Shown piece after piece: positions 11,173-50,136 of a stretch of 64,000 nucleotides of DNA (positions are counted from its first letter, which is position 1; the number at the start of each line of letters is the position of its first letter). The notes under the pieces are model-generated. The model saw nothing but the letters and a program-made list of their open reading frames with translations, made no database searches and was not told the DNA's origin. Source of the stretch: an uncultured archaeon (GTDB lineage: Archaea; Nanohalarchaeota; Nanosalinia; Nanosalinales; Nanosalinaceae); contig CAYQYU010000002.1 of the NCBI GenBank assembly GCA_964421955.1, forward strand, positions 1 through 64,000, given 5' to 3'. The position numbers were made by a program, and so were the translations under genes.

Positions 11173-11298
11173 AAGACTATTGAGAGGCCGGGGAAGCGTA
11201 GTTCATAAGCTTTGTTTTTGAGTCTTGAACCTGTCTTCATGCAATATAGAGTTTAAACAAGAAAATAGGTTTTATTCTCCAGGAGGACGTGGAGAAAA

Positions 11299-12729: not shown

Positions 12730-12762
12730 AATTGACCCTGCCAACATCCTACAGGTGAATAT

Positions 12763-13974: not shown

Positions 13975-14452
13975 CTTCGACCGGGTTCTTTTCAGGACGG
14001 GCGACTTCAAGGACTTTCTGGACGACAGGATAGACGGATTCATAGAGACCTATCCCGAGAAAGGAGTATATGATCCAGAGCTGCACGCGAAAAATCTGGG
14101 TGTCAGTAGTGGAAGAATACTTCAGGCTCTCGAACGGTCCTCGGACTTCATGTATGGTGATCTGGACAAGCTTGAAAAACTGGACAGGCATGAACTGGTG
14201 CTTGTGACGCGGGGAGATATAGAGTTCCAGAAGCTGAAAGTGAAATATTCCGGGATCCTTGAATACATCGACAGAGTTGTGATAGTTAACAGTGGGCCTA
14301 AAGATCAGGTGGATATAGACCTTCTCGTGGACGACAGGAAGTCTGAGATTGACCGGGTCGATGTTGAAGGGTTCCAGTTCGACAGGGAGGAGCATTCTCT
14401 TGAAGACGTGGTCGAGTGGGTGAAACGGCTTGAAGCCCGAAAAAGTGTTTAG
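13958..14452 (+). CDS. HAD-superfamily hydrolase
   Basis: GTG start at 13958; IGIDFDRVLF motif I, VTRG, LVDDR. Confidence 0.8.
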   Translation: MKIGIDFDRVLFRTGDFKDFLDDRIDGFIETYPEKGVYDPELHAKNLGVSSGRILQALERSSDFMYGDLDKLEKLDRHELVLVTRGDIEFQKLKVKYSGILEYIDRVVIVNSGPKDQVDIDLLVDDRKSEIDRVDVEGFQFDREEHSLEDVVEWVKRLEARKSV

Positions 14453-15740
14453 GAGATATGACGTAAGAGGCAGCTACCCCGGAGAAATTGATGAAGAGTT
14501 CGCGGAGAGACTGGGGAAGGCTCTCGGAACTTTTTCCAGAAGAAACTATTCCCGAGAGGTGGTTGTCGGAAAGGATACCAAGCAGTCCTCAGGAGATCTG
14601 AAAAGATCATTTATCCGGGGACTGAGAAAGGTGGGAGTATCGGGGCTGGACGCTGGTACAGGACCGACGGACTACGTTGCATTTGCGGGGAAGAAGGAGG
14701 GATGTGTATCAGTCCAGGTAACCTCGTCGCATCTCCCGCTGGATACCAATGGCTTCAAGTTCATGTACCCGGAAGGAAACGGCTTCCTCAACGAGGATCT
14801 CTACAGAATCCAGGACATTTTCCGGGAGCAGAACTTTGAAACAGGCAGAGGTGAAACGGTCGAACTGGAAACCATAAGGGACACGTACTTCCGCGAGATG
14901 AAGAATTACTTCCACCAGAACTTTGACTCGACGGGAAAGAAAGTGGTTGTAGAAACGCTGGGGGGTGCCGCAACGGGTTTCCTTCCAGAACTGCTCGAAT
15001 CAGTCGGCGCTGAGGTAATCGATATCGCATCGGAAAAAAATGCTGGCGGCCCATACATCAATCCTCCAGACCCTGAACCTCACCGAATGGGACACGTAGA
15101 GAGAAAGGTTGAAGAGGAAGACGCCGACCTCGCTGTCGTGACCGACATGGATGCCGACCGGGTAAGAGTTTACCACGGCGGCGACTGGTTGACCGGCGAT
15201 GAACTGTTCGCGATACTTGCACGGGAAATTGACAGTGATGTGGTCGCGTCGATTGACACCTCCCAGGCGGTCGAGGAGGTTGTCGAGAAACAGGGTCACG
15301 AGGTGGATTATACCCGGGTTGGCGATCCATTTGTGGTTGACAGGGCGCTCGAAAATAGGGTCTCACTAGCGGGCGAGCCGAACGGCCACTACTGCTTCCC
15401 GGAATTCGTGGCATACAACTCCGGAATTCTCTCGGCACTTCTGGTCGCGGGCCTCGATATCTATGAATCTCTCGACAGTATACCGGAGTACTACACTGAA
15501 GCTGAAAAGGTAGAGGTCGGGGGGAAAGAGAAGAGGATGGCCGCAGTTGTCAACCATGTCATCGACAACTACGAGGTTGTCTCGGATATTGACGGCATAA
15601 AGTTCAGGCACGGTGACACATCAGTTCTCATAAGGTCCTCGGGTTCCTCGCCCTATATCAGGATCAAGACCGACTCGAAGTCTTCGAAAGAGGCGCTTGA
15701 AGCAGTGGATCTCGCGAAAGAAATAATCCGGAACCCATAA
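14430..15740 (+). CDS. phosphohexomutase (PMM/PGM/GlmM family)
   Basis: YDVRG, TSSHLP, DMDADR, RVGD, GEPNGH, RSSGS. Confidence 0.9.
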   Translation: MKPEKVFRRYDVRGSYPGEIDEEFAERLGKALGTFSRRNYSREVVVGKDTKQSSGDLKRSFIRGLRKVGVSGLDAGTGPTDYVAFAGKKEGCVSVQVTSSHLPLDTNGFKFMYPEGNGFLNEDLYRIQDIFREQNFETGRGETVELETIRDTYFREMKNYFHQNFDSTGKKVVVETLGGAATGFLPELLESVGAEVIDIASEKNAGGPYINPPDPEPHRMGHVERKVEEEDADLAVVTDMDADRVRVYHGGDWLTGDELFAILAREIDSDVVASIDTSQAVEEVVEKQGHEVDYTRVGDPFVVDRALENRVSLAGEPNGHYCFPEFVAYNSGILSALLVAGLDIYESLDSIPEYYTEAEKVEVGGKEKRMAAVVNHVIDNYEVVSDIDGIKFRHGDTSVLIRSSGSSPYIRIKTDSKSSKEALEAVDLAKEIIRNP

Positions 15741-16977: not shown

Positions 16978-17835
16978 TCAAAGCTGCCTGGCGATATTTC
17001 TTCCTTTATAAATTATTGCCCCGATCACCAGGAACGGCAGCAGGTAGCCGAGCCCGACTATGATCAGGTTCAGGCTGCTGAATATCGCGCGGTATGCGTT
17101 CATGAACGACTCCCTTAGGTCGAATTCGGTGGTCAGGGACTCAGGTTCCTCGAAGTTTACCGTGACCTCTGTGTATTCTATTCTCCTGTCGAGGCCGGTG
17201 AGCTGGTTCTCCAGGTACTGTATCCGTGAACGCAGGTGAGACATCCGGTCCTGAATTTCTATGAGGTCGCTGGTATCGTTTGTCCTGTTGATAAGTTTCT
17301 CGAGCTGCCGCAGTTCCTGTCGCCTGTTCCTTAGCTCAAGTTCAATCTCGGTATACCGGTCGGTGACGTCGTCACTGTTCTTCTGGCTGGATTTCACTTC
17401 CCAGTTCTGCTCAAGTGCGTCAAGGAATGCAGTGACGTTTTCCTCCGGAACCCTGACTGCCAGAGTTCCCCTTGTATCCGTTTCTCGGCTGAAAGAGCTG
17501 GAGTCAACAATCCCGGCGTATTCCTCTGTAAATTGCTGTACTCCGTTCATCGCCTCTTCCACGTCAGGCACCTCAAGGTCTATATTGTACCGGGTTATTC
17601 TCTTCCTCTCAGTTGATGATCCCGAAGCACCATCACTCTCCGCACCTGAGGGTGCGTCGGCAGAGTAGCCCAGGGAAGATGATGATTTCAGTTCCTGTCT
17701 TGCAGGGGATGAGAAATCTTCCTGTGTGTTTCCAAGTCCGGTGAACTGGGATGCCACGCCAATAGCAAGTGCGAGAAAGAGTACAAGTGCCGCGGCCAGA
17801 TATCTCCGGTCTACAAAATCTTCCAGCGCTTCCAT
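16978..17835 (-). CDS. DUF4349 family membrane protein
   Basis: N-terminal TM, DDVTDRYTE, coiled coil, IEYTEVTV, C-terminal TM LLPFL. Confidence 0.85.
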   Translation of the reverse strand: MEALEDFVDRRYLAAALVLFLALAIGVASQFTGLGNTQEDFSSPARQELKSSSSLGYSADAPSGAESDGASGSSTERKRITRYNIDLEVPDVEEAMNGVQQFTEEYAGIVDSSSFSRETDTRGTLAVRVPEENVTAFLDALEQNWEVKSSQKNSDDVTDRYTEIELELRNRRQELRQLEKLINRTNDTSDLIEIQDRMSHLRSRIQYLENQLTGLDRRIEYTEVTVNFEEPESLTTEFDLRESFMNAYRAIFSSLNLIIVGLGYLLPFLVIGAIIYKGRNIARQL

Positions 17836-17877
17836 ACACTATGAATCTTGATCTGAACTTATAAACCGATGGCTTCT

Positions 17878-17895
17878 GTTCGATGATTATCGAAC
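17878..17895. promoter_or_regulatory. perfect 7-4-7 palindrome GTTCGAT-gatt-ATCGAAC between divergent DUF4349 and regulator genes
   Basis: 12 bp upstream of the DUF4349 TATA (17859-17865), and close to the regulator's own TATA. Confidence 0.75.
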
Positions 17896-17938
17896 CTAGA
17901 TGTTAAAGTAAAAAACAGTTCCTCCTCAGAAAAAGAGT

Positions 17939-18490
17939 ATGGAACTTGACTTCGGCACCGTGAAAGCTCTCTCCTCACCCACCAGGATAAAGATACTCAA
18001 CCAGGTGCTTGAGGAGGAGTCTACGCCAACGAGCCTGAGCAATAGCCTCGGCAAGAGCAAGTCAACGGTTTCCTCGCATCTTGAAACGCTTGTGGAAGCC
18101 GGGCTTGTAGACAGGGACGCGGAGGAGGGCCGCCGCCGGGTGGTTTACCAGCCTACCAGGAAGGCGCAGCATATCGTGAACGGGAGAGAGAAGCGGGTAA
18201 AATTCTCGCTGACTTCCTCGATAGTCTCGGGTTTTGTCGGTGTCACGCTTGTGGGGAGCCAGGTCTTCTCAAGTATAAAGTCCGCATCGGGCACATTCCA
18301 GTCACAGGGAGAGGCCGGGATTTCAGCAATGACCGCCGAGGGCATGGACACGGCGGCGAGAGGTGCGGAGGCGGCTTCACAGGGAGCATTCGATCCAGGT
18401 ATGGCAATACTCGCCTCGGGAATCGGTCTGCTGGGCCTGAGCGCTGCCGCTTTCCTCTACGGAATCGCAATGAGGAAGCTCGGTCGGTGA
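17939..18490 (+). CDS. ArsR-like winged-helix regulator with two C-terminal TM helices
   Basis: KALSSPTRIKIL...KSTVSSHLETLVEAGLV, then two hydrophobic segments. Confidence 0.85.
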   Translation: MELDFGTVKALSSPTRIKILNQVLEEESTPTSLSNSLGKSKSTVSSHLETLVEAGLVDRDAEEGRRRVVYQPTRKAQHIVNGREKRVKFSLTSSIVSGFVGVTLVGSQVFSSIKSASGTFQSQGEAGISAMTAEGMDTAARGAEAASQGAFDPGMAILASGIGLLGLSAAAFLYGIAMRKLGR

Positions 18491-18626
18491 TGTATCGGGG
18501 GTTACTCTTGAGGCCGGGTGGAAGTAAGATATTAAACTGTGGAGAGATAATTCTGTTTAGAAGCTTTCAACACCACCAAGAGCTCCAGTAAAAAGGAAAT
18601 GACAAGTTTTTCTTGTGAACAACATT

Positions 18627-19073
18627 ATGGCAACCTGTGAACTTTGCGGACAATCGACTGATTCTGTGTCAAAAGTCAAAATCGAAGGAGCCGTGCTGAA
18701 GGTCTGTAGCTCATGCAAAGACCTTGGTGAAGAAGTCAGCGGCGGCAAGAAGAAAAAGAGGAAGACCCGGAAGAAATCCCAGGGGTCCAGAGAAGAGAAC
18801 ATCCTTGCCTCGGATTATGGTAAACGCGTCAAGGAGGCCCGGGAAGAGGAAGGCATCTCGATCAGTGAGCTGGCGGAAGAGCTGAACGAGAAATCGTCGC
18901 TCATAAGCAAGATTGAGAAACAGGACCTGAAGCCCGATAAATCGCTCGCCGAAAAGCTCTCGAAAAGACTCGAGATAACTCTCTATACCAATCCCGAGGT
19001 AACTGATTACGATTCCCCCGAAGGCGACTCGAGGAAGGCAACCCTTGAGGACGTGGCGAACGTAAAGGACTAG
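18627..19073 (+). CDS. mbf1: archaeal multiprotein bridging factor aMBF1
   Basis: CELCG...VCSSC zinc ribbon, Cro-type HTH, C-terminal TLEDV. Confidence 0.9.
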   Translation: MATCELCGQSTDSVSKVKIEGAVLKVCSSCKDLGEEVSGGKKKKRKTRKKSQGSREENILASDYGKRVKEAREEEGISISELAEELNEKSSLISKIEKQDLKPDKSLAEKLSKRLEITLYTNPEVTDYDSPEGDSRKATLEDVANVKD

Positions 19074-19534
19074 ATTTTGAACTCCTGGTCCAGCATCAGG
19101 TGTGACAGCAGCCCGACTCCCAGCGCGATACCGGGGATAGGAGTTGCGACCACGAATATTCCTGCGATGGTCGCCAGGGACATGGCCGTAACAGCGAAAC
19201 TAAGTGTGTGCGTGATGCCACGGTGCCTGATTTCGAGCCGGGAGAGCAGGAGGTAGACTCCAAGGAATGCCGCGATCGCCGCAGCGAAGCGGAACGGGAC
19301 AGGCAATGGTAGAAGAAAGGTCACGAGTCCGGCCGCGACGCTCAGGAATGACTTGACCGCCCGGTGAACGTAGGAATTCTTGTGGTCGATATCAGGAATT
19401 ATCGAGCCAAGGAAGACCGCGAGAACGGAGATCGCTACCTCGACTTCTCCGAGCACGAGAAGGTCTTTCAGGCCGTACGCCACGAATACTGCGACAAGCA
19501 GTCCAAAAAGCACGTGCTCGCTGAAGTCACCCAT
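19070..19534 (-). CDS. membrane metal-dependent hydrolase (YdjM-like)
   Basis: PDIDH, HRGITHT, SHLMLD, hydrophobic. Confidence 0.85.
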   Translation of the reverse strand: MGDFSEHVLFGLLVAVFVAYGLKDLLVLGEVEVAISVLAVFLGSIIPDIDHKNSYVHRAVKSFLSVAAGLVTFLLPLPVPFRFAAAIAAFLGVYLLLSRLEIRHRGITHTLSFAVTAMSLATIAGIFVVATPIPGIALGVGLLSHLMLDQEFKI

Positions 19535-19821
19535 CCTGAACTATTTCTCGATCCTGGCTTAAGTTTCCGTTGCAAACCACCCTTAGACCGTGGAGGATGA
19601 CCTCCCCACTGGGCCCGCAGACGTCTAGCTCCGACCCCTCAGACGCAAATTTAAAAATCTCAGGGCTCAAGGCCTTTTTGACGTGATCTAATGCAGGGTG
19701 GGCGTTTTCACTCCGGCAAGCTTTGCAGCCCCTGAAGACCTTCTGGACAGTTCAAGTTCTACCCGATGGGAAAACCGGTTTAAAATCCCGCAGAGTAAAC
19801 CCGTTTCAGGAGTTGGGCAGA

Positions 19822-21120
19822 ATGACTGAAATCAAGGGACTGAAAGGATTCTACGACCGCTACCCGGATGAATTTGGGTCATGGCGGGAACTTATCGATA
19901 CAGTTGAGGAGACAGCAAGGGAGTTCGGTTTCCGTGAGATAGACACTCCAAGCGTTGAAAAGACCGATCTTTTCCGGGTGAAGTCTGGCGAGGAGCTGCT
20001 CGACCAGATGTACCGTTTCGAGGATAAAGGCGGCAGGGACGTTTCCCTCATACCGGAACAGACTCCTACCCGCTCTCGATTAGTCCAGTCACGCAAAGAC
20101 CTAAAGTCGCCGATCAAGTGGTTTGACACCTCGAAGCGGTGGAGGTACGAGAACGTCCAGAAAGGTCGCGATAGAGAATTCTTCCAGACTGACATCGATA
20201 CCTTTGGAGTTGAATCCGTCGAGGCCGACGCAGAAGTTATCGCGTGTGCCGCCACGATCTACAAGAAGCTCAACCTAGAGGATCGTGTGAAGTTTAAACT
20301 GAATGATAGAAAGCTACTGGAATCGATACTTGAGGCCCATGGAATCGGCAACGCTGAAGAAGTGATGCAGGTTATCGATGATAGGGAGAAGATGTCCAGG
20401 GAAGAGTTCCTTGGGGAGCTTGAAGATGCAGGCCTGGGATCCGGGAAGGCGGAGGAAGTTGAGGAAATAACTTCGATCTCCGGACCAATAGCGGAAAGGA
20501 TCGATGAGCTGAAGCAGCAGGCGCCCGGAGATGCACAGGACGCAGTTGAAAGAATCGGAGACCTTTCCAGGGCGCTTGAGTCATATGGTGTCGCCGAGAT
20601 GTGCGAACTCGACCTTTCAATCGTACGCGGACTCGCTTACTACACTGGCCTGGTGTTCGAGGCCTTTGACAGCAAGGGCGAGCTTCGGGCGCTTTTCGGT
20701 GGTGGCCGATACGACTCGCTTGTGGGTCTTTTTGGCTCACGGGAAGTTCCTGCGGTAGGCTTCGCCTTTGGTTACTCCCCTACCGTGGAGCTTCTCAGGA
20801 AGGAAGACCGGTGGCCTCTGAGAAGCATCGAGACCGATGTCTACGTTCTGAGCGTGTCCCAGTCAGTCAGAGATCGTGCCCTCGAATATGCACGGGAGTT
20901 GAGGGCCCGCGGCCTATCTGTCGAGACCGATCTAAAGGACCGGGGTTTTGGTGACCAGCTAGATTATGCGGACTCGGTGAATGCAAAGCGTGTCCTTGTG
21001 GTTGGAGAAAGAGACCTTGAGAAAGGCGAGGTCACGATGAAGCACATGGATGCCGGCGAGGAAGAGAATATTGGAGAAGATGAAGTCATAGAGCACCTGG
21101 AGTCTGAGGGCTTCTTCTAG
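19822..21120 (+). CDS. hisS: histidine--tRNA ligase
   Basis: LKGFYD, PEQT, WRYENVQKGRDREFFQ, RGLAYYTG, GGGRYD. Confidence 0.97.
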   Translation: MTEIKGLKGFYDRYPDEFGSWRELIDTVEETAREFGFREIDTPSVEKTDLFRVKSGEELLDQMYRFEDKGGRDVSLIPEQTPTRSRLVQSRKDLKSPIKWFDTSKRWRYENVQKGRDREFFQTDIDTFGVESVEADAEVIACAATIYKKLNLEDRVKFKLNDRKLLESILEAHGIGNAEEVMQVIDDREKMSREEFLGELEDAGLGSGKAEEVEEITSISGPIAERIDELKQQAPGDAQDAVERIGDLSRALESYGVAEMCELDLSIVRGLAYYTGLVFEAFDSKGELRALFGGGRYDSLVGLFGSREVPAVGFAFGYSPTVELLRKEDRWPLRSIETDVYVLSVSQSVRDRALEYARELRARGLSVETDLKDRGFGDQLDYADSVNAKRVLVVGERDLEKGEVTMKHMDAGEEENIGEDEVIEHLESEGFF

Positions 21121-21551
21121 CCGTCGGACCTCTCGAGTTCTCTCTTGTGATCCTCGAGTTTTCGCCTGTTGGATTTCAGGAACTCCAGTATCTGCTGGAA
21201 ATCGTGGATGTTAAGGCCCTCGATGTCTAGACGGGAGTCGTCGAACCTCTCTATGTAGCCGTTGTCCCTGAGCGCTTTGATGCCCTTGCCAAACGCTGTT
21301 CGGTCGAAATCGAAGTCCACCTTTTCACCGATGTTTTTCACCCGGGGATGTGCTCTCCCGTACTGGAAGTTCCCATTTTCATCCCAGTAACCACATTCCC
21401 TGATACCCTGGTATATCTTGTCTATGTTGTTCATCAGGCTTGTGAACCTTCTCCTGTTCTCGTCATCGTCTTCAAGGTACCGCTGGAACTTCTCAAGCAC
21501 TTCTTCCTTGCTGTAGGAGGACATGGCTTCAACCAGAGTTTGGGCAGACAA
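21117..21551 (-). CDS. hypothetical protein, possible winged helix
   Basis: RTAFGKGIKALRDNGYIERF. Confidence 0.55.
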   Translation of the reverse strand: MSAQTLVEAMSSYSKEEVLEKFQRYLEDDDENRRRFTSLMNNIDKIYQGIRECGYWDENGNFQYGRAHPRVKNIGEKVDFDFDRTAFGKGIKALRDNGYIERFDDSRLDIEGLNIHDFQQILEFLKSNRRKLEDHKRELERSDG

Positions 21552-21566
21552 CGGTTAAAGTTTTTT

Positions 21567-21947
21567 CTAGAACTCTGAAAGGTTTTTCTGCCTCTCCTCT
21601 TTTTCTTCCATGTAGAAGTTGTATTCCCGTGCGACCCAGCGGGAGAGAAGATCCACAATCGAGTCCACCTGCTGGTTGGTCAGTTCCTTGTTTTCCGGTA
21701 TGCTGTGAGAGAGCGAGAGTTCCTCTCTTGAAGCTGCGTTACAGGCATGCATCGCCTTGTAGACCGGGTTTCCACCTACCGGTGTCTGTGCACCGTCATT
21801 CTCCGGTTGCTTCATCAGTTTTTCTTCGACTATTTTCCGGGCCTGGTTCCTGATAGCGCCTATACCTATCTCCCTGATCAGGTGAATATCGTTCTCGTCC
21901 AGCCTCGGTCTTGTGGCGTCTCTCCCGGGAAGTTTGAGTCTACGCAT
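21567..21947 (-). CDS. DUF4186 family protein
   Basis: NDGAQTP..GNPVYKAMHA, HSIPENKELT.QQVD.IV. Confidence 0.75.
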   Translation of the reverse strand: MRRLKLPGRDATRPRLDENDIHLIREIGIGAIRNQARKIVEEKLMKQPENDGAQTPVGGNPVYKAMHACNAASREELSLSHSIPENKELTNQQVDSIVDLLSRWVAREYNFYMEEKEERQKNLSEF

Positions 21948-21994
21948 GTCCAGAATTTGACTCTTTAACGTTTTAACAGTGGAGACAGAAGAGT

Positions 21995-22426
21995 TCAGCG
22001 GCTTTCTCTTTTCTCGGCAGCTATCTTGAGCTCCGTGAGACCCTGCTCCAGCAGCTGTGCGAGACTCTTGTCAGCATCGCTGAGTTTCCGGTTCACGGCG
22101 TCGGCCTCTTCAAACTTCTCCTTCCTGAAAAGGTTCACGTAGAGTTTCACCGCCTGTTTCGGATTCGATACCTGATGGTTGAGATCCACCATAACTGTCA
22201 TGAAGGTCTCAAGGTCTCCCCGGTTTTTCAGGAACTCCAGGAGCAGCCTCTCAAATTTCCCGTAAATATTGCTGTCCCTGGAACTTATACTCCTCTCTGT
22301 ACCGAAGGCATCCTGTCCTTTACCGAAGTTCGGATCACCGTGTTGCTCCGCTATCTGGTTCAGTATATTCCTGATCTCCGAGTACTTTTTCTTCGAATTT
22401 CCGAACAGAAATCCTTTGATACTCAT
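21995..22426 (-). CDS. hypothetical protein
   Basis: 143-aa ORF divergent from ychF. Confidence 0.6.
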   Translation of the reverse strand: MSIKGFLFGNSKKKYSEIRNILNQIAEQHGDPNFGKGQDAFGTERSISSRDSNIYGKFERLLLEFLKNRGDLETFMTVMVDLNHQVSNPKQAVKLYVNLFRKEKFEEADAVNRKLSDADKSLAQLLEQGLTELKIAAEKRESR

Positions 22427-22480
22427 AGCATAAACCCCGGGACACGGCTTAATAAAGATTCGATAAACCCTTCGAACATA

Positions 22481-23677
22481 ATGCCCTACAAAATTGGACT
22501 CGTTGGAAAACCATCCGTAGGCAAGTCAACGTTCTTTAACGCAGCGACCATGAACACCGTCGAGGAGGGGAACTATCCATTCACAACTATCGAGCCCTCT
22601 GTTGGAGAGGCGTATGTCCGCGTGAAATGTGCGGCTCCTGATTTTGACGAAGAATGTGATCCCAGCGTCGGCTTCTGCAAAAAAGGGACACGTTTCGTCC
22701 CGGTCCAGCTCGTGGATGTCGCAGGTTTGATTCCCGGAGCCCACGAAGGAAAGGGCCTGGGAAACAAGTTCCTGACTGATCTCAACGAGGCAGACGTACT
22801 TGTCCATATTGTCGATTTCTCGGGCAAGACTGACGAGGAGGGTGAGCCAACGGACAGTCATGATCCCCGGGAGGATATCGACTTCCTTGAGGAAGAGCTG
22901 GACATGTGGTACCTGGAGATACTTGAGAAGGGGATCGAGCGTTTCGAAAACAAGCAACGGCAACCAGATGTCAAGCTGGAGGAAGAACTTGCCGAGCAGA
23001 TGTCGGCGTTCAAGATTGGGAAGAACAGGGTGAAACAGTTGATACTTTCAGAGGACCTGAGCCTGGAGCCAGACGACTGGAGCCCTGAGGAAAGGAAGTC
23101 ACTGGCCCGGTCAATCCGGAAGGAGACGAAGCCAATGGTCATCGCCGCGAACAAGATGGATGATGAGGAGGCGAGGGAGAACTACGAGGAAATTAAAGAT
23201 GATCCCGATTATAAGGACCTGACGATTGTCCCGTGTTCCGCCCATGCCGAGAAGGCGCTGAAGAATGCCTCGGAAAGGGGAGTTATTGACTATATCCCCG
23301 GGGACGATGAATTCGAGATCGAGGAGGAAATTTCGGGCAAGCAACAGGAAGGCCTGGAGAATATCAGGGAGTTCATCAACAGCTATGGGGGTACCGGTGT
23401 TCAGGAGGCGCTTGAGACCGCGCTTTTCGATGAGCTTGGAGTCATCGCGGTATTTCCAGGAGGCGCGGACGGTCTCGGCGACGAGCACGGTAACATACTG
23501 CCCGACTGCTTTCTAGTGCCCGGGAACGCGACTGCGGAAGACTTTGCGTTCGAAATTCATTCCGATATCGGCGAGGGCTTTCTCCACGCGATTGACTGCC
23601 GGGAGAACAGACAGATAGGAGCCGATCAAGAACTCGAGCACCGGGACGTTATAGAGATCGTTTCCGCGAACCAGTAG
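22481..23677 (+). CDS. ychF: redox-regulated ATPase YchF/OLA1
   Basis: GKPSVGKST, YPFTTIEP, DVAGL, ANKMD, TGS domain IHSD; start at ATG 22481. Confidence 0.95.
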   Translation: MPYKIGLVGKPSVGKSTFFNAATMNTVEEGNYPFTTIEPSVGEAYVRVKCAAPDFDEECDPSVGFCKKGTRFVPVQLVDVAGLIPGAHEGKGLGNKFLTDLNEADVLVHIVDFSGKTDEEGEPTDSHDPREDIDFLEEELDMWYLEILEKGIERFENKQRQPDVKLEEELAEQMSAFKIGKNRVKQLILSEDLSLEPDDWSPEERKSLARSIRKETKPMVIAANKMDDEEARENYEEIKDDPDYKDLTIVPCSAHAEKALKNASERGVIDYIPGDDEFEIEEEISGKQQEGLENIREFINSYGGTGVQEALETALFDELGVIAVFPGGADGLGDEHGNILPDCFLVPGNATAEDFAFEIHSDIGEGFLHAIDCRENRQIGADQELEHRDVIEIVSANQ

Positions 23678-23685
23678 ATAAGAAA

Positions 23686-24327
23686 TTAGAAGAGGCTGGA
23701 GAACCAGCTGAAGAGTCCTTGAAGCAATCCTCCCTGGCTGTCTCCGTCGTTATCGTATTCTTCCCGGGGTTCAGACACCCATTCAGGTCTTTCCAGAGTA
23801 TCTACTGTCTCGCCGTTATGCTGGACCTCGAGCCGGAACGGCTCGCCAGTGAATGTTTCACTCGTCTCGAAGCTGGCCATGTACTCTATACCAGAGATGA
23901 CCTGTATGCACGCGGTCTGGCTGTCGAGTTCGTCCCTAACCGTCCTTATGTTCAAGGTGTAGGAATTGTTGTTCCCTCCCTCGATTTCGTGTTCAATCAC
24001 GTGGCAGGGTGTCGGAGCTGTTATCCGGCCGTTAAAGCTTACTTTTTTCTTCCCGTCACGGGAATAGCTGACGTTGAAGATCGCGTTACCGGTATCTGTT
24101 GAAGAGCGGTTGACCATGGAAACCTCTGTCCTGTACTCGGTGCCGTTCGCTCCCACGGCTGTGGTCGCAGATGCGCTTGAACTTGTACTGCCTGTCGCCC
24201 CACTCATTATGCAGGCATGGCCTGGTGGACAGTCCGGTTTTGAACCGTTTTCGTACGCTATTCCTGCAGCTAGACTTACAAAGATTAACAGAGATGCCGC
24301 GAGCAAGAGTTCTCGTCTCATACACAT
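23686..24327 (-). CDS. secreted protein with a PrcB-C-like Ig-type domain
   Basis: Signal peptide; GRITAPTPCH...CIQVI...LEVQHNGE; amphipathic tail GLFSWFSSLF. Confidence 0.7.
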   Translation of the reverse strand: MCMRRELLLAASLLIFVSLAAGIAYENGSKPDCPPGHACIMSGATGSTSSSASATTAVGANGTEYRTEVSMVNRSSTDTGNAIFNVSYSRDGKKKVSFNGRITAPTPCHVIEHEIEGGNNNSYTLNIRTVRDELDSQTACIQVISGIEYMASFETSETFTGEPFRLEVQHNGETVDTLERPEWVSEPREEYDNDGDSQGGLLQGLFSWFSSLF

Positions 24328-24364
24328 TTCTTCCCGTTCCCGGCTTTATAAGAGCTTATTCACT

Positions 24365-24382
24365 GTTCGATCTGGATCGAAT
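24365..24382. promoter_or_regulatory. second copy of the palindrome, GTTCGAT-ctgg-ATCGAAT
   Basis: 13/14 match to 17878-17895; 12 bp upstream of the TATA (24346-24352) of the 23686-24327 gene. Confidence 0.72.
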
Positions 24383-25347
24383 TAGTCCCACTGCACTATC
24401 CCTCTGTCATCGTAGAGCTGCGGGTAGGTTCTCCGGGTCCAGCGCTCGAAATCTCCGATCTCTTCCTGGACCTCGGCTCCTGCTGCTCCGGCCTTCTCCT
24501 CTACTGTTCCTGTTATCTCGTCGTCTGTATTCTCTGGTCTCAGTTGGGGGTGGTAGTCGGGATCTATCCTGACCAGTCCCTGGCCGTCATACCACTGGGG
24601 GAATGTCTTCATTGTCCATTCCTCAAGTTGCCGGTCAAGACCTCCTGCGTCTTCAGCCAGTCCTCTATCTCCAGTTTCTTCCTCTACCTGGTCGGCCTCC
24701 TGCCCGGTTCGCTCGCCGATGCTTCTACCTTCCTTCATGCCGGCTAGGGCAGGACTGTAACCCGGGGACTGTATGCGCTGTATCTTGGTCCCGTTATGGT
24801 AGATTTCCAGCGCAAAGTCGTCCTGGAACTGGAACAGGCCCTGGTAGTGAACCCGTCCCTTACAGGTCTGCCCGTCCTGCTGCTGGGGCTCCGTGAACTG
24901 GATGTTCATCCTGTAGAGGTTCTCCTGGACTCCGGAGGCATCCGCAACCTCGAAGTCAAGCCCGGACTCCGGACTTGGAGTCTCTATAACTCCCCTGAAG
25001 TTGGCTTCCCGGGCATTGTCTTGCGATGAGAACTGGACGTCCGCCAGTCCCTCTCTGCTCTGTTGGCCCATGCAGCTGGAATCCACCTTCCAGACATCCA
25101 TCCACGGCGCAGGACCTCCCTGTGACCGTAGCGGCTGCAGATGTGGCTTGACCGGGAAACTTGCTGTGCTCTCGTTTTCCCTGTACTCCCAGGTTGCGTT
25201 GGATTGCTGGTTCATTCCCTTCTGGTCAGGCATGTTACTCTGGTTAGTCATATTCGACTGGCTTTGCTCTTGGGCGGCCACTGCTCCCACAGAAATTGAG
25301 AATACGAGGAACAGGGCGGATGCGGTGAGGAGAACTTGTCTTCTCAT
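24382..25347 (-). CDS. secreted protein, paralog of the adjacent gene, with a duplicated C-terminal motif
   Basis: Signal peptide; FRGVIETPSP...LEIYHNG; repeats EEWTMKTFPQWYDGQGLV and ERWTRRTYPQLYDDRGIV. Confidence 0.7.
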   Translation of the reverse strand: MRRQVLLTASALFLVFSISVGAVAAQEQSQSNMTNQSNMPDQKGMNQQSNATWEYRENESTASFPVKPHLQPLRSQGGPAPWMDVWKVDSSCMGQQSREGLADVQFSSQDNAREANFRGVIETPSPESGLDFEVADASGVQENLYRMNIQFTEPQQQDGQTCKGRVHYQGLFQFQDDFALEIYHNGTKIQRIQSPGYSPALAGMKEGRSIGERTGQEADQVEEETGDRGLAEDAGGLDRQLEEWTMKTFPQWYDGQGLVRIDPDYHPQLRPENTDDEITGTVEEKAGAAGAEVQEEIGDFERWTRRTYPQLYDDRGIVQWD

Positions 25348-25490
25348 ACGCGAAGACTCTCTTTGAGGGTTTAAATACAACAGTTAACTCCTCTGTACAT
25401 GTTTCGCTGGAGGCCGTTTCCGATGTCAAAAACCACGACTCTCCTATAAAGATTGGGGTTCAAAACGTTCTGTAGAGGAAAGTTTTCGTT

Positions 25491-26624
25491 ATGAGTTTTT
25501 CAGATCTTGACATATCAAGTGAAGTTGTAGATAACCTAGAAGAACACGGTATCACGGAACCTACCGAGGTACAGGAAAAATCTATTCCATACGTGCTCGC
25601 AAGCATGGACGTCCTGGTCGAGTCAGAGACCGGCTCCGGAAAGACGCTCGCATTCTCACTCCCAATAATTGAACGTGTCTCGGGAGAACGGACACAGGCA
25701 CTGATTCTTTCACCCACAAGGGAGCTCGCGAAGCAGATCTCGGAGGAGATTGACAAGGCCGCTACGGATAATGTTGAAACAGTTACTATCTACGGGGGAG
25801 TATCTTACGGCCCACAGGTAAAGGGTGCAAAGACTGCCAATATCGTTGTCGGGACACCGGGAAGAGTGCTTGACCTGTTGAAGCAGAACAAGTTACAGGT
25901 CGGCGACCTTGATTACCTGGTTCTGGATGAAGCGGACAGGATGCTCGACATGGGATTCCAGGACGAGCTGGAGGCGATAATTGATTTCTGCCCGAGAGAA
26001 AGGCAGAACCTTCTTTTCGGGGCGACCATCCCAAGCGACCTGAAGAAGATGTGCGACAAGTACGACATTGATCCTGAAACGATCCGGATCAAGTCGAAAC
26101 AGCATACGAGAAACCTGAGCGAGAAGTACGTCGACACGAAACGGAACCGGAAGCTGTCGATGCTATACACTCTACTCAAAGACCGGGAACGAGATCTCTC
26201 CCTGGTTTTCTGCCGGACGAAGAATACCACCCGGTGGCTTGCGGACAAGCTCCGGAAGAACGGTATAGACGCGCAAGAGCTGAACGGCGACATGTCCCAG
26301 CACCAGCGCGAGAAGACCGTTGAAAAGTTTGAAAACGGCGAGATCAAGGTCATCGTCGCGACGGATGTCGCGGCAAGAGGACTTGATATTGACGGCATCT
26401 CCCATGTTTTCAATTACGATGTTCCCGACAAGTTTGACACCTACACCCACCGTATAGGCCGTGCGGGGAGACAGGGAGAGGACGGTGAGGCGGTCACGCT
26501 GCTTGAAAAGGATGACCACCGGCAGTTCCGGAAGATCAAGCGCAGGAAGAAGGGCGTCAAGAACTCGACGAAGATCGAGAGGATTGACAAGGACGAACTC
26601 GACCTGAAAAAGGCAAGAACCTGA
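25491..26624 (+). CDS. DEAD-box RNA helicase
   Basis: Q motif, TGSGKT, PTRELA, TPGR, DEAD, ARGLD, HRIGRAGR. Confidence 0.96.
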   Translation: MSFSDLDISSEVVDNLEEHGITEPTEVQEKSIPYVLASMDVLVESETGSGKTLAFSLPIIERVSGERTQALILSPTRELAKQISEEIDKAATDNVETVTIYGGVSYGPQVKGAKTANIVVGTPGRVLDLLKQNKLQVGDLDYLVLDEADRMLDMGFQDELEAIIDFCPRERQNLLFGATIPSDLKKMCDKYDIDPETIRIKSKQHTRNLSEKYVDTKRNRKLSMLYTLLKDRERDLSLVFCRTKNTTRWLADKLRKNGIDAQELNGDMSQHQREKTVEKFENGEIKVIVATDVAARGLDIDGISHVFNYDVPDKFDTYTHRIGRAGRQGEDGEAVTLLEKDDHRQFRKIKRRKKGVKNSTKIERIDKDELDLKKART

Positions 26625-26635
26625 GTCATAGGGAC

Positions 26636-26746
26636 TTAAGACCAGGCCAGGAGGGTCGCGCCGAAGAGCTTGAATGCCCCGATTATTGCGATCACCATGA
26701 AGAACATCAGGATCGCGTAAACCTTCACCTTGTCTTCCAGAGTCAT
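26636..26746 (-). CDS. 36-aa single-pass membrane microprotein (not in ORF track)
   Basis: MTLEDKVKVYAILMFFMVIAIIGAFKLFGATLLAWS; fills the intergenic gap. Confidence 0.6.
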   Translation of the reverse strand: MTLEDKVKVYAILMFFMVIAIIGAFKLFGATLLAWS

Positions 26747-26915
26747 TAGACCTGTTAAACCTTTCTCTTCTAGCTGTATAAAAATTCTCTTTTTCAGCCC
26801 CTCTCTGTGGGCGATAAAGTTTAGTCTGAATAAAAGATGCCGGGTCGAAAACCACTGGTCTACCTTTTAAAGCTTCGGTTCTATCTGAGCTTATTCAAGG
26901 AGGTGTATTTATTCT

Positions 26916-27110
26916 ATGAAAGGTACAGTCAAGTTCTTCCATGACAGGAAGAACTACGGTTTCATCGAGACAGATGAGATGGACGACGACGTATTCTTCC
27001 ACGACAGCGAAGTCGAAGACGGTCTGACAGTTGAAGAAGGGACCGAAGTCGAGTTCGAGCAGGAAGAAGGCGACCGTGGACCAAAGGCAGTCAGCGTAAC
27101 AGAAGCTTAA
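26916..27110 (+). CDS. cspA: cold-shock protein
   Basis: GTVKFF, YGFI, DVFFH, GPKAVSV; strong SD GGAGGTG. Confidence 0.93.
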   Translation: MKGTVKFFHDRKNYGFIETDEMDDDVFFHDSEVEDGLTVEEGTEVEFEQEEGDRGPKAVSVTEA

Positions 27111-27137
27111 ACCGCAAGGTTTGCTTCTGTCCACATA

Positions 27138-27165
27138 TCTATCCTATCTTTTTCTTCAGTTTTAC
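27138..27165 (+). terminator. T-rich archaeal terminator after csp
   Basis: tctatcctatcttttttcttcagttttt-type pyrimidine tract just downstream of the stop. Confidence 0.45.
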
Positions 27166-27227
27166 TCGATAATTCCTTGTGTGTCCATCCGCCAGTAATT
27201 AAATATGTGCTCTACAATATATGTTCT

Positions 27228-27875
27228 GTGTCAGGGACCAGAGATCACGGCCCGGAAGAAGAATTTCTCGACCAGTTCGACAGCTTCGGCGGCTCAGTTA
27301 TGACACTGGAGCAGCACGCCGGTAACTATGTTGATGCGCTGGGCCAGCACCTGTCCGGATCTCATAATGAAAACCCGGGGCTTGAGATGGCGGTCGAAAA
27401 TGTTGCGTGGTCGCTGGAGAGGGTTTGGGATGAGATGGAGAGGATTGGCCGGAATATTTCAGAACGGGAGATGACGGCGACCGTGAGGTACAACGGTGAT
27501 CTTGCAGCTATCGACTTGGATGAACCTGTGGAGGCCAACGGTGAAAACTACTGTCCTCTCGATGAGTTCAGGGACATCGTGTTCATCTCCCACCATATGA
27601 ACCGGGAAGGCCTGGAGATAGCCGGAGAAGATGGTAACGGAACGATCCAGGCAATGATAACTGCCTCGGAAGATCTTGTCAATTCCTACCAAATGCTTGA
27701 AAAACAGTATGATCGACTTCTGTCGGCGGAGCTCCTGGCCCGCAAATATTTTGACACAGGAGAAGTCCTGGAACCTTACGAGGTCGAGCCACCGCTGTAC
27801 AGTATGCTTAACAACACTGAACACCAGGAAAAGCTCAATCGACTCAATAGCAGGATTAAGGAGGACGGAACCTAG
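27228..27875 (+). CDS. hypothetical acidic protein
   Basis: Long acidic ORF; probable GTG start at 27228. Confidence 0.65.
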   Translation: MSGTRDHGPEEEFLDQFDSFGGSVMTLEQHAGNYVDALGQHLSGSHNENPGLEMAVENVAWSLERVWDEMERIGRNISEREMTATVRYNGDLAAIDLDEPVEANGENYCPLDEFRDIVFISHHMNREGLEIAGEDGNGTIQAMITASEDLVNSYQMLEKQYDRLLSAELLARKYFDTGEVLEPYEVEPPLYSMLNNTEHQEKLNRLNSRIKEDGT

Positions 27876-28058
27876 AGCTCAAGATGTAAGCGTTCTTCTC
27901 CAGCAAATCTAATGTTCAGAGTGAGATCATCGCCCAGCTGTATCTCGTTGTACTCTGAGCTTCCTGAAAGTTTCATCCAAAATATGTCGCTAGCAATTAA
28001 TAATGCATTAAAAGCTTTCTGGAGGCCATACTTAGTTTTTCACCACCGTTCTATTCCT

Positions 28059-28397
28059 ATGACCGGCGACTTCAACGAGACGGTTGCAGGGCTGCTTGAG
28101 GACAACGGAGCGGTGAACCGCTTCTCGATCCACGAGGAACGAGGGCACGCGAGCGCAGTCGCCCACTCGCGGGCGGGAATAGACGAGAAGAACAGGATAG
28201 TCAGCGACCCCCTGTCCGAGGGCTACGATGTCACCTATGAGGGAACCTGGTACGGATGGGAACACTATATCATCCAAGACGTGGATCCGGGAGACGTTCC
28301 CGGTGATCTTGACAAACTTGTTCCGGAGTACAGGAGCGAGGCCCCTGACTCCTACACCGTCCCGAGCTTCAGCGAATGGCTTGAAGACAGGGAATAA
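28059..28397 (+). CDS. hypothetical acidic protein
   Basis: Acidic composition begins at ATG 28059. Confidence 0.65.
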   Translation: MTGDFNETVAGLLEDNGAVNRFSIHEERGHASAVAHSRAGIDEKNRIVSDPLSEGYDVTYEGTWYGWEHYIIQDVDPGDVPGDLDKLVPEYRSEAPDSYTVPSFSEWLEDRE

Positions 28398-28415
28398 AAT
28401 GCTGGACAACAATTT

Positions 28416-28742
28416 ATGAATATGCTCGAAAATTTTGACCGCATTAATGCCGCCGCAGCCTTCTTTGCGATGTTCGTTCTCGCGGGCATACTCACAGCAC
28501 CCACTCAGAGCTATCGTGTTATGACTGAGATATACTGCTCGTGCGATGTTAACGAGGGAGATGTTCCCTGTAACGATGTCACCCAGATCGACTATATTTT
28601 CTACACCGGCCTAGTAAATATCTATCGAGAGCATAACATGAAGGAGATTGTCGAGTGCCGGAACGGCAACAGAAGCGGAACTCACAACCGTATGGAGAGC
28701 CAGCAATACGGTGTAGAGTTTTTGTCAACACGAGCTGCCTAG
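28416..28742 (+). CDS. small exported/membrane Cys-containing protein
   Basis: N-terminal TM, four Cys. Confidence 0.55.
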   Translation: MNMLENFDRINAAAAFFAMFVLAGILTAPTQSYRVMTEIYCSCDVNEGDVPCNDVTQIDYIFYTGLVNIYREHNMKEIVECRNGNRSGTHNRMESQQYGVEFLSTRAA

Positions 28743-28780
28743 ACTAGAAGACACTTTCAGGTCGACGAGCTCCTGGCATC

Positions 28781-28798
28781 GTTCGCTTTTCACCGAGC
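28781..28798. promoter_or_regulatory. degenerate third copy of the palindrome, GTTCGcT-tttc-AcCGAgC
   Basis: 11/14 match; 11-12 bp upstream of the TATA (about 28811) of the 28839 gene. Confidence 0.5.
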
Positions 28799-28838
28799 GT
28801 TTCCGGGGGATTAAAAGAAGTGTGATGAGATACCTAGA

Positions 28839-29654
28839 GTGAAGAGGAGCTTCCAAGTGAGAAAATGGCTCAAGATCGCGGGCATTTTACTGGCGGCAAT
28901 CATCGTACTGACAGCTGTAGCGATCGGTATTGTGGTTCTGGTAATATTCTCCATCGGGACGAGTGGCCCGGATCCTGGTTCCTTCATGCACCAGGTCGAG
29001 TACACCGCGGAGTTCAGATTCAACGGTACTTTGAATGACACCGAGATAATTGTTCCCTACCCCGATGATGGAAGGTTCCAGTCCGCAATCAGGGGAAACT
29101 CGGACGCCCGACTGTCGAACGAATTGAACGCATCGCTGTCGATTGTGAATACCTCTCGAGGTGAGATGCTGAAACTTGATGTCGGCGATTTCACGCCCAG
29201 GACTGACAGTGAGAGATTTGAGAGAGAATTCAGGAGGCTGGAGAACAATACGGACCGTGAGATACGCCGCGTGAATGTCACGGGTCTCGCGAAGTACAGC
29301 TCCTACAACCTTTTGGTCCGTTTTGACTACAACAGGTCGCTTGACACCAGGAACGGCCTAACAAACGAGCCTCACCTTGAATCAACCAGCGCGGAGTGCC
29401 GCGGTCCAAGAGAGTCGGGCTGCGCCATGACCGGGGCGTTCCTGAACTACACTGCCTCCAACTCGACGCACATGGAGCTCAGCGTCAGAATCAGCGGCAG
29501 GAACTCCTGGTGGAACTGGGGATGGTCCGGCAACAGCTACAGCCAGCGCTTCTACAACAGCTTCTACGACAACCAGAATTTGGTCGGTTCCCAGAAAGGA
29601 TGGATTACACTCAGAGGAAGAGAAGACCAGGGAGAAGGAAGCTACAGGTATTGA
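28839..29654 (+). CDS. membrane-anchored extracellular (glyco)protein
   Basis: N-terminal TM, many N-x-S/T sequons, C-terminal GRNSWWNWGWSGNSY. Confidence 0.75.
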   Translation: MKRSFQVRKWLKIAGILLAAIIVLTAVAIGIVVLVIFSIGTSGPDPGSFMHQVEYTAEFRFNGTLNDTEIIVPYPDDGRFQSAIRGNSDARLSNELNASLSIVNTSRGEMLKLDVGDFTPRTDSERFEREFRRLENNTDREIRRVNVTGLAKYSSYNLLVRFDYNRSLDTRNGLTNEPHLESTSAECRGPRESGCAMTGAFLNYTASNSTHMELSVRISGRNSWWNWGWSGNSYSQRFYNSFYDNQNLVGSQKGWITLRGREDQGEGSYRY

Positions 29655-29659
29655 GCGCT

Positions 29660-30202
29660 TCACGTGATTCTAAGCGTTTCTCTGTTACCCAACGCAAAAC
29701 CGGTGATATCTTCCACCAGTACTTCCACGTTTTCCTCGAATATCTCTGGAAAAACTTCATGGAGGTGGTCTACTAACTCTGCACTGTACTCAAAATGATA
29801 GGAATCACTGAAAACGGAAAAACTTGTTTCATCTTCGGGAAAACCGGTTGCCTGTTCCCCGCCTGCACAAAAACCCAGGTTCCGTGCGACGCCTTTAACC
29901 ATTACATCCCCGAAGTCCAGGTTGTAGTTGACACAATAGGTTCTCTCAAAGTCCAGTTGCTCGCCCTGGCTTTCAGAGATATAGAGTTCTGATACCGGAA
30001 TATACTTTTCAAAGGTCTCGGCTATCTCCTCCTTGCTCCCGGGGGCAGATGAGTAAAGGGCAAAACCTTCCGGCTCCCAGTAAACAACCACGCAGTTACC
30101 TTCATATTTGAACGTCCCCATGACCGAAACCTCATCGGTGTAAAAACGGTTGACGTTATCTATTGTCTCGAACTCGTCAAGAAGTCTGTCCCTCTCGGCC
30201 AT
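29660..30202 (-). CDS. hypothetical acidic protein
   Basis: 180-aa ORF, TATA-like TTTAAG about 25 bp upstream. Confidence 0.7.
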   Translation of the reverse strand: MAERDRLLDEFETIDNVNRFYTDEVSVMGTFKYEGNCVVVYWEPEGFALYSSAPGSKEEIAETFEKYIPVSELYISESQGEQLDFERTYCVNYNLDFGDVMVKGVARNLGFCAGGEQATGFPEDETSFSVFSDSYHFEYSAELVDHLHEVFPEIFEENVEVLVEDITGFALGNRETLRIT

Positions 30203-30244
30203 GACCTCATCTTCGAACCAAAACTTAAACCAGTCCCGGCCGAT

Positions 30245-30814
30245 CTAGGTTTCCCCCGGAAACTGATTCTTTAAGTAGTGCTGGATAGCATCCTCTTCAA
30301 AGCCCATCAATGCATCATATCTATCGCGGTAGTGCCGGGAGCTGTTGATGTACTTTACCAGATCCCCAATTACCTGATAAACTGCTTCGTCTCTTGCATC
30401 TTCACCTAGAATTGAAGGCAGCACGGTCCTCAAAGGCTCCAGCCAAGCCTAAAATGTTCCTTTACCTTTATTCCTGAGGTACGTCTTCTTGGTCCCTATT
30501 TTCTTGCACTTGTCACATGCCACGTGAAATTTGAGAACCGGATTGTGTTCTTTACCCCAGTTCTCAACCTGCACCACGTGGACTCTTTCCTCACAATCAG
30601 GGCATCGAAAGGAAAATTTGTCGCTGCTGTCCTCGACTACTTCCGGGTCAAATTCTTGAGGCCAGTCACCTTTCACCCGTGTGTAACCGAAATCCTCGTA
30701 GAGGAAATTGCTTACTTCCGGATGGAAAGTGGAGCTTATCTTGACCTCATCACCGAATTCTACATCCGGAAGCAAATTTGCTTCTTCCAGCAGTTCGGTA
30801 GCAGGGTCGCTCAT
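30245..30814 (-). pseudogene. zinc-ribbon protein apparently split by an in-frame TAG at 30449-30451
   Basis: CPDC...CDKC ORF (30449-30814) continues in frame after TAG as AWLEPLRTVLPSILGEDARDE... to 30245. Confidence 0.5.
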
Positions 30815-49959: not shown

Positions 49960-50136
49960 TGGGGTCGGAGGGATTTGAACCCGCAACCTACCGCTAGCTC
50001 CTGCGCTAATTTTTAATCATCAGAGTCAGGTGACTCCTCATCCCTCCAAAGTTGGTTGCCCCGCAACCGTCACTTGCGTTTGCGTAGCGTAACACGCACT
50101 GGAGGCGGTCGCTCTGCCGAGTTGAGCTACGACCCC
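49960..50136 (-). tRNA. tRNA-Trp(CCA) with a 103-nt intron (49996-50098) at position 37/38
   Basis: Exon 1 GGGGTCGTAGCTCAACTCGGCAGAGCGACCGCCTCCAG; exon 2 AGCGGTAGGTTGCGGGTTCAAATCCCTCCGACCCCA; CTCC/GGAG bulge-helix-bulge core. Confidence 0.93.

Follow-up and report, generated by a model that had tools for sequence, protein, structure and literature searches.

We analysed a 64,000-nucleotide stretch of DNA (hereafter the window; contig CAYQYU010000002.1, assembly GCA_964421955.1) from an uncultured archaeon of the Nanosalinaceae, in which a palindromic element recurs close to promoters. At its first occurrence (S1) the element lies between two divergent genes, one encoding a membrane protein with a DUF4349 domain and the other a small regulator in which a winged helix-turn-helix (wHTH) domain is joined to two transmembrane (TM) helices. 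A second copy (S2) precedes the gene of a secreted protein, and a third, weaker look-alike (S3) precedes the gene of a membrane protein (Table 1). As judged from the comparison of related loci described below, the palindrome accompanies the wHTH/2-TM gene as a conserved cis-element, and site, regulator gene and further genes preceded by the site form a well-supported cis-regulatory unit.

The sites had been picked out in an earlier note on this DNA, whose coordinates and sequences (a perfect palindrome, a 13/14 and an 11/14 match) are correct. Pfam and hydropathy analyses also agree with its description of S1 as lying between a DUF4349 gene and a divergent, ArsR-like regulator with two TM helices. 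The edge of the motif is 42 nucleotides (nt) from the start codon of the DUF4349 gene, and 43 nt from those of the regulator gene and the S2 gene (ATG 24321). The note gave about 41–44 bp throughout; for S3 the gap is 40 nt or, probably, 58 nt. Its 11–12 bp between site and TATA box were right in that the spacing is fixed, the measured values being 12–13 nt. Measured from its centre, S1 is 52 nt from the ATG of the regulator gene and 51 nt from that of the DUF4349 gene, placing it midway between two divergent core promoters. The suggestion that S1 lies nearer the TATA box of the regulator is not borne out: the conserved TAAAAA element (TAAAAAA in the window, 17909–17915) is 13 nt away, and the site is symmetric between the two promoters. 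The products of the three putative target genes are exported or membrane-anchored, as claimed: the DUF4349 protein has TM segments, the S2 product begins with what looks like a signal sequence, and the S3 product is hydrophobic over a stretch near its N-terminus. S2 overlaps the upstream paralogous gene by a single base, which is the last of both the site and that gene's stop codon.

We asked how often such sites would arise by chance. The 14-base pattern with up to three mismatches has seven matches in the window, compared with a mean of 3.8 in shuffled sequences, and 7 of 100 shuffles reach seven; S3 is thus not significant from sequence alone. A window scan with the looser pattern TTCG-N8-CGAA, which had been proposed as a check, is not informative by itself: three matches were found where 1.76 are expected, and three are reached in 27 of 100 shuffles. 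We then scored the window with a full position weight matrix (PWM) built from 47 validated sites in other genomes, the weakest of which scores 15.4 bits. S1 ranks first (25.9 bits) and S2 second (18.5 bits), followed by an intragenic match at 21298 (13.2 bits) and by S3 (12.3 bits); under a first-order Markov null, 0.52 positions per 64 kb score at least as high as S3. The promoter geometry, also taken from other genomes, consists of an A/T-rich box 11–14 nt after the site and the start of a long open reading frame (ORF) 49–56 nt from its centre. It is present at 546 of the 64,000 window positions (0.85%), or at 1,214 (1.9%) if starts up to 72 nt away are admitted. S1, S2 and S3 all have this geometry, and the other motif-like matches tested (21298, 12301, 61535 and 7129) do not.

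The match at 21298–21315 lies inside an ORF (21117–21551) and, being without promoter geometry, was treated as chance. The ORF itself, on the minus strand, encodes an acidic protein of 144 residues with no Pfam match and no tblastn homologue in the 36 related loci described below; it occupies a 446-bp gap between the HisRS and DUF4186 genes, which abut in other loci. We also considered whether the palindrome might act as an RNA structure, and rejected this. The half-sites are conserved in sequence and not in pairing, with the changes to ATTCG, CGAAT and CTAAC left uncompensated, and an Rfam search found no family overlapping the sites.

Table 1. Genes, promoter elements and palindromic sites (window coordinates unless a related locus is named)
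Feature	Position	Strand	Remarks
Phosphomannomutase gene	14430–15740	+	
DUF4349 membrane protein gene, 285 aa	16978–17835	-	Pfam; putative divergent target of S1
TATA box of the DUF4349 promoter, TTTATAAG	17858–17865	-	12 nt from S1
Operator S1, GTTCGATGATTATCGAAC	17878–17895		Perfect palindrome, common to two divergent promoters
TATA-like box of the regulator promoter, GTAAAAAA	17908–17915	+	12–13 nt past S1
wHTH/2-TM regulator gene, 183 aa	17939–18490	+	Pfam, hydropathy, AF2 model
aMBF1 gene	18615–19073	+	
YdjM-like membrane protein gene	19070–19534	-	
HisRS gene	19723–21120	+	
DUF4186 gene	21567–21947	-	
GTPase gene	end at 23677	+	
Secreted protein gene, 211 aa	23686–24321	-	Putative target of S2
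TATA box of the secreted-protein gene, TTATAAAG	24344–24351	-	13 nt from S2
Operator S2, GTTCGATCTGGATCGAAT	24365–24382		13/14
Tandem secreted paralogue gene	24382–25380	-	hhalign
DEAD-box helicase gene	25491–26624	+	
Block of unnamed genes	~26.9–30.4 kb	mixed	Includes the 271-aa membrane protein gene (28839–29654, +)
Candidate weak operator S3, GTTCGCTTTTCACCGAGC	28781–28798		11/14
TATA-like box, TTAAAAGA	28811–28818	+	12 nt past S3
Match in L015	15461		24.2 bits; adjoining ORF resembles a frameshifted membrane protein
Match in L034	2201		23.5 bits; no gene found alongside
Match in L023	14328		14.4 bits; protein with hydrophobic stretch, start 53 nt off
Match in L001	18602–18619		20.8 bits; secreted-gene operator, also facing a divergent 446-aa ORF, ATG 56 nt from centre

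The palindrome in related nanohaloarchaeal loci

A profile of the regulator family, searched against species-representative genomes, yielded 36 related loci (L001–L036) from other nanohaloarchaeal species. All are nanohaloarchaeal by record except one. L027 is recorded as the bacterium Colwellia polaris, yet it carries a nanohaloarchaeal regulator together with aMBF1 and phosphomannomutase genes in the usual order, so this metagenome-assembled genome (MAG) is probably mislabelled.

The palindrome GTTCG-N8-CGAAC precedes the regulator gene in 36/36 loci, and in 35 its core deviates at one position at most. With the window included, 27 of 37 regulator promoters have a perfect core, nine have one mismatch and one, that of L027, has two. 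The centre of the site is 50–55 nt from the regulator ATG in all of these promoters except that of L036 (70 nt), and a TAAAAA box is conserved 13–15 nt past the site across the 36 loci. In the MAG from which L036 comes the regulator gene is present twice, the other copy being L006; the L036 copy (region 4193–4321) is at the end of a contig, and an extra GTTCG half-site stands 10 nt upstream. When the half-sites are symmetrised, positions T2, T3 and G5 are invariant in 94/94, R and T are preferred at positions 6–7 and T at position 0, and the flanks cannot be aligned. The resulting consensus is tGTTCGRt-N4-aYCGAACa. GTTCGAT-N4-ATCGAAC, which the earlier note took for the full motif, is therefore too specific: its 7-base arms are the window's own version of tGTTCGRt, and what is conserved is the shorter core.

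The neighbour on the far side of the operator varies, with DUF4349 in 13/36 loci, while the site is constant; the site therefore goes with the regulator gene. An operator conserved across species before the regulator's own gene is a classic signature of autoregulation, and the comparison thus points the same way as the autoregulation proposed earlier. A different reading is that the palindrome, though real, belongs to another factor, which would have the wHTH/2-TM gene as just one of its targets. The link from regulator to site is indirect, and the aMBF1 gene, which neighbours the regulator gene in 28/36 loci, also encodes an HTH protein. Yet aMBF1 is a general co-factor and is not known to read specific palindromes. 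The site is found before the regulator gene whatever the other neighbour may be, and the half-site and the recognition helix of the regulator are both nearly invariant. We consider binding by another factor quite improbable and take the regulator itself as the candidate binding protein.

The DUF4349 gene is the candidate target on the other side of S1. Its product matches PF14257 over residues 77–275 (1.4e-44; 152.5 bits, cut-off 27.7), with TM segments at residues 7–25 and 257–275 by hydropathy and a middle part rich in coiled coil. In 13/13 loci with a divergent DUF4349 gene, the start codon is 51–56 nt from the centre of the same operator, and a TTTATAA-like box lies 11–13 nt from the site. 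Among the few published mentions of DUF4349 we found no work on the family in archaea. In L035 a DUF4349 ORF beside the regulator gene (9759–9857, minus strand) stops after 32 codons, either as a pseudogene or through an assembly error. Seven loci lacking DUF4349 (L003, L006, L016, L026, L027, L028 and L030) share a conserved stretch, TTTTTATAGGTA.GGG.GTTAAA.CC, which ends up some 60–110 nt upstream of the operator and may hold the promoter of a small divergent gene. Rfam searches of three of the seven (L006, L026 and L028) gave no match in this stretch.

To look for targets beyond S1, a second PWM was built from the 36 regulator sites alone and scanned over 673,263 nt. It returned 20 further matches of at least 11 bits (21 with S1), and 13 of the 20 have an ORF start 49–56 nt away. 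Three hundred column-permuted matrices gave a mean of 5.35 matches; with the geometry required, the mean was 0.83 and the maximum 11, so that none reached 13. Twelve of the real matches precede genes of the family to which the S2 gene belongs, one of them a truncated 31-codon ORF in L018. A full gene of this family is present in 12 loci, and in ten the site is 52–55 nt from the ATG. The window is alike: the ATG of the S2 gene is 52 nt from the centre of S2, and orthologues favour this start (24321) over ATG 24327. In these promoters the half-site beside the TATA box is always CGAAC, the mismatches being confined to the distal half. Two comparisons suggested in the earlier note, a fixed promoter position in related loci and conservation upstream of orthologues (36/36 loci for S1 and 10/12 for S2), thus came out in favour of the site.

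By alignment, the S2 product (211 residues) has a signal peptide followed by a beta-rich domain, in which two cysteines are invariant, and a C-terminal amphipathic helix with a conserved W..LF motif. The motif stands at the extreme C-terminus in most of 14 aligned members, and together with the two cysteines it could be a membrane-anchor, surface-anchor or sorting signal. The family has no Pfam or NCBIfam match. The AF2 model of the S2 product has a mean predicted local distance difference test score of 73.5 and a confidently modelled core, where blocks within residues 50–177 reach the 80s and 90s; it had no fold match in the PDB at E ≤ 0.001. A profile search recovered 658 cluster representatives at E ≤ 0.001 (235 at E ≤ 1e-10), and some members contain two or three copies of the domain. 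In the Atlas, the S2 product and the 271-aa protein encoded downstream of S3 match only unnamed archaeal clusters. The gene upstream of S2 encodes a paralogue of the secreted family (hhalign probability 97.6%, E 3.3e-12), of 332 residues if read from TTG or 321 if read from ATG 25347; no PWM match, and hence no operator of its own, was found in its upstream region. Matches in other loci that bear on the range of targets are given at the end of Table 1. The 446-aa ORF facing the L001 operator, whose N-terminus by eye recalls a sulfatase, is a possible lineage-specific extra target.

The third site is harder to place. It scores 12.7 bits with the regulator-only matrix, and with the full matrix it falls under all 47 validated sites and is outscored by the intragenic match at 21298, both of which count against a regulon with three sites in the window. 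Its promoter-proximal half-site, CGAGC, carries a change found in no validated site, the weak ones among them retaining CGAAC in this position. The gap to the start codon is 40 nt for GTG 28839 and 58 nt for GTG 28857. GTG 28857 is preceded by GGAG at 8 nt, and its position is where six of seven aligned orthologues start, so the gene probably starts there, encoding 265 rather than 271 residues behind a short leader, and its distance from the site is then unlike that of the others. Together with the lack of enrichment of the 14-base pattern at three mismatches, these points suggest that S3 may be a chance look-alike, the regulon in the window being S1 and S2 only; we give this a substantial, slightly less than even chance. 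Against it, matches combining the score of S3 with the promoter geometry are expected by chance at about 0.004–0.01 per window (0.52 × 0.85–1.9%), and weak matches (11–15 bits) are enriched at promoter geometry in the 673 kb scanned (4/7). The S3 product is also a membrane protein, as for the other targets, with a hydrophobic stretch at residues 7–44. Thirteen proteins, its own entry included, match it at E ≤ 0.001, one of them named Nanohaloarchaeota QJJ-7, and tblastn found no homologue within the 36 loci. That S3 is a weak real site is, in our estimate, about an even bet. The earlier claim of a common site before three envelope genes holds for S1 and S2 in the loci compared, and S3 stays below threshold.

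The proteins encoded in the window are acidic in composition, which together with the named relatives of the regulator (below) places it among the nanohaloarchaea (DPANN). Around S3 (about 26900–30400), neither a Pfam family nor, by tblastn, a homologue within the 36 loci was found for six ORFs of 232, 161, 108, 271, 180 and 121 residues, so that this part of the genome may be variable. A nucleotide-sugar gene cluster occupies 8825–15740 and 54857–56605, with two phosphomannomutase-like and two NTP-transferase/hexapeptide genes and a GlmS-like gene further on; the cluster fits the synthesis of surface glycans close to the regulon. An Rfam tRNA match extends over 177 nt (49960–50136, minus strand; 45.8 bits) where ARAGORN calls none, and is probably an intron-containing tRNA gene. 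A 301-residue protein (53818–54723, minus strand) has an ArsR-type N-terminus (HTH_20/HTH_5), a match to the outer domain 'S_layer_C' and no hydrophobic segment; these matches mark it as another ArsR-like regulator in the window, soluble and unusually built.

The regulator and its known relatives

From its N-terminus, the regulator consists of the wHTH (about residues 1–85), a first TM helix, an outside loop of about 40 residues, a second TM helix and a short basic tail. The wHTH matches Pfam HTH_5 (PF01022, ArsR) over residues 13–58 (53.2 bits, cut-off 22; 2.7e-14). In the AF2 model it has helices at residues 5–10, 14–25, 30–37 and 41–53, a wing at 57–72 and a helix at 74–80. Hydropathy places hydrophobic segments at 95–113 and 155–173, and the model extends these into helices at 91–115 and 153–182. 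The outside loop is of low complexity and poorly conserved. All 17 Pfam matches are to HTH families, and no sensor domain was found among them. The layout is kept in 22/22 aligned relatives, and nearly all of the 120 relatives listed span 99–100% of the regulator (five span 61–86%); the closest named ones in this list are from Candidatus Nanohaloarchaea, Nanohalovita, Nanohalobium and Nanohaloarchaea SG9. The recognition-helix segment, KSKST.SSHL, is nearly invariant in the family.

By sequence, the closest solved structures are PH1932, CmtR (Rv1994c), NolR, ArsR and HlyU. The match to the ArsR/SmtB metalloregulator model NF033788 is below its cut-off (51.9 bits, cut-off 55), as is a weak match to the SdpR autorepressor model. 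No metal-binding cysteine is present in or before helix alpha3, residues 1–90 being free of cysteine altogether. The regulator resembles ArsR/SmtB proteins and SdpR-type autorepressors in its HTH_5 wHTH and in the palindromic operator at its own promoter. It differs in that those are soluble repressors with promoter-overlapping sites and metal ligands, whereas here there are two TM helices, no cysteine in the wHTH and a site upstream of the core promoter.

The nearest parallel in layout is provided by ArnR and ArnR1, two membrane-bound one-component factors that activate the archaellum operon in Sulfolobus acidocaldarius. These too begin with an HTH and end in a pair of TM helices, and in controlling a cell-surface structure they bind inverted repeats (TCGAC-N5-GTCGA) that lie upstream of the TFB recognition element (BRE) and TATA box (PMC6396743). 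In ArnR, however, HAMP-like and sensor domains separate the HTH from the membrane part, while in the present regulator the first TM helix begins about 10 residues past the wHTH. ArnR also requires two boxes, whereas a single palindrome with an 8-nt spacer is found here, and the targets are DUF4349 and an unnamed secreted family instead of type IV pili. The comparison with ArnR is one of layout and not of sequence, and no ArnR model is among the NCBIfam or Pfam matches of the regulator.

In a wider sense the protein is a transmembrane transcription regulator (TTR), having a DNA-binding domain and a TM region in one polypeptide. According to the main text of the census by Demey et al. (2023; PMC10269533), TTRs occur in 367 of 404 archaeal species at about four per genome; two TM regions, the number found here, are present in 17% of TTRs overall. 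That survey is a census of architecture, which the regulator shares, and as far as its main text goes it does not extend to operators or regulons; the words nanohaloarchaea, DPANN and ArsR have no occurrences in it. Bacterial ToxR, CadC and TcpP are described as likewise being one-component activators that work from the membrane on sites upstream of promoters, some of them with a membrane partner (ToxS, TcpH). Their winged helix is of the OmpR type, and they combine one TM helix with a folded periplasmic sensor and act on bacterial RNA polymerase. None of these features was found here; Trans_reg_C is not among the 17 Pfam matches. With TrmBL1, finally, the system shares a palindromic site upstream of BRE/TATA, an arrangement that is associated with activation (PMC4706686). 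TrmBL1 and SurR differ in being soluble, in belonging to a different wHTH family and in controlling sugar or redox regulons. The gene switch described here is therefore real but not unprecedented, since membrane-bound one-component factors are already known. In titles and abstracts we found no published description of the factor, of the operator or of any nanohaloarchaeal regulon; the literature thus agrees with the earlier note that nothing of this kind had been described in the lineage, although systems of this kind are known elsewhere.

Direction of control

We propose that the regulator is a membrane-tethered one-component activator with positive feedback, controlling genes of surface proteins. 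Its cytoplasmic, ArsR-type winged helix, directly followed by a two-helix membrane hairpin, would bind as a dimer to tGTTCGRt-N4-aYCGAACa. The invariant half-sites and the nearly invariant recognition helix, found before the regulator's own gene, argue for such a dimeric autoregulator. The operator, 11–13 nt upstream of the TATA box, abuts the BRE, and the bound factor would aid the binding of TFB and TBP. At S1 one symmetric dimer would drive both the regulator's own gene and the DUF4349 gene; at S2 the regulator would drive a secreted beta-rich protein; and S3, ahead of a membrane-protein gene, is possibly a third and weak site. Because the outside loop is short, of low complexity and poorly conserved, the factor would more likely sense its signal by way of the membrane hairpin or of a partner protein than through a ligand bound to the loop.

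Activation is favoured because the site is upstream of BRE/TATA, where archaeal factors activate. The placing of the site just upstream of BRE/TATA, in the position of an activator, had been noted before and holds at a fixed distance in the loci compared. SurR-type proteins are position-dependent archaeal regulators. The effect of TrmBL1 depends on where it binds, with activation from upstream of BRE/TATA and repression from downstream (PMC4706686). The boxes of ArnR, which are inverted repeats, occupy −43 to −84 of a promoter that is activated, that of flaB (PMC6396743).

The same protein and operator could instead act in repression, including repression of the regulator's own gene. Bound next to the BRE, the factor would hinder TFB, and a membrane-related signal would de-repress the surface-protein genes. 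The DNA-binding domain is of the ArsR type, the sub-cut-off matches include metalloregulator and autorepressor models, the target promoters have near-consensus TATA boxes, and a footprint extending a few bases past the motif would be expected to touch the BRE. However, in about 60 promoters the site is never over the TATA box or the start region and always lies 11–13 nt upstream, where the archaeal factors so far characterised activate (PMC4706686, PMC6396743). The usual alpha3 metal-sensing site is also absent, the wHTH having no cysteine. On this evidence we regard a repressor as rather unlikely.

Several points weigh against the activator model. ArsR/SmtB and SdpR-type relatives are classically autorepressors, and with good TATA boxes at the target promoters an activator may not be needed. 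Transcription starts were assumed, as leaderless or with a short leader. We infer the binding of the palindrome by the regulator, its dimeric state, activation and the signal from sequence, and what links the regulator to the site is co-localisation only. Two loci that are close relatives of each other (L008 and L021) have a secreted-protein gene without the site, and in 23/36 loci a DUF4349 gene is missing from the surrounding 10 kb. The comparison took in about 20 kb per genome, which limits the view of the size of the regulon, and the third site is weak, as set out above. Taking these points together with the conservation and the position of the site, we judge the activator model as a whole to be reasonably probable.

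Nothing was found in support of the proteolytic release, envelope stress or host contact that the earlier note had brought in, and no protease gene is among the ORFs of the window scanned against Pfam. A more specific version, by analogy with ToxS and TcpH, would have the tethered factor use DUF4349 as its sensor partner in a minimal surface-sensing circuit across Nanohaloarchaeota, switching on secreted and membrane proteins on contact with a haloarchaeal host. Complex prediction for the membrane part of the regulator (residues 86–183) with DUF4349 gave scores of 0.00 and 0.00, a 'no answer' that favours neither outcome. We consider this circuit a long shot; if true, it would give DPANN archaea their first host-contact regulon to be defined.

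The genomes of DPANN archaea are very small and encode few regulators, and gene control in these organisms is almost unstudied. One operator, one tethered factor and a small set of surface genes, kept together across many nanohaloarchaeal species, offer a testable handle: a DNA-binding domain of 90 residues, an 18-bp site and two unnamed families of surface proteins. S1 is a tidy example of one dyad-symmetric site midway between divergent archaeal core promoters. The regulator would be a minimal, sensor-less addition to the membrane-bound archaeal factors, among which only the ArnR pair is named as characterised in the literature we found.

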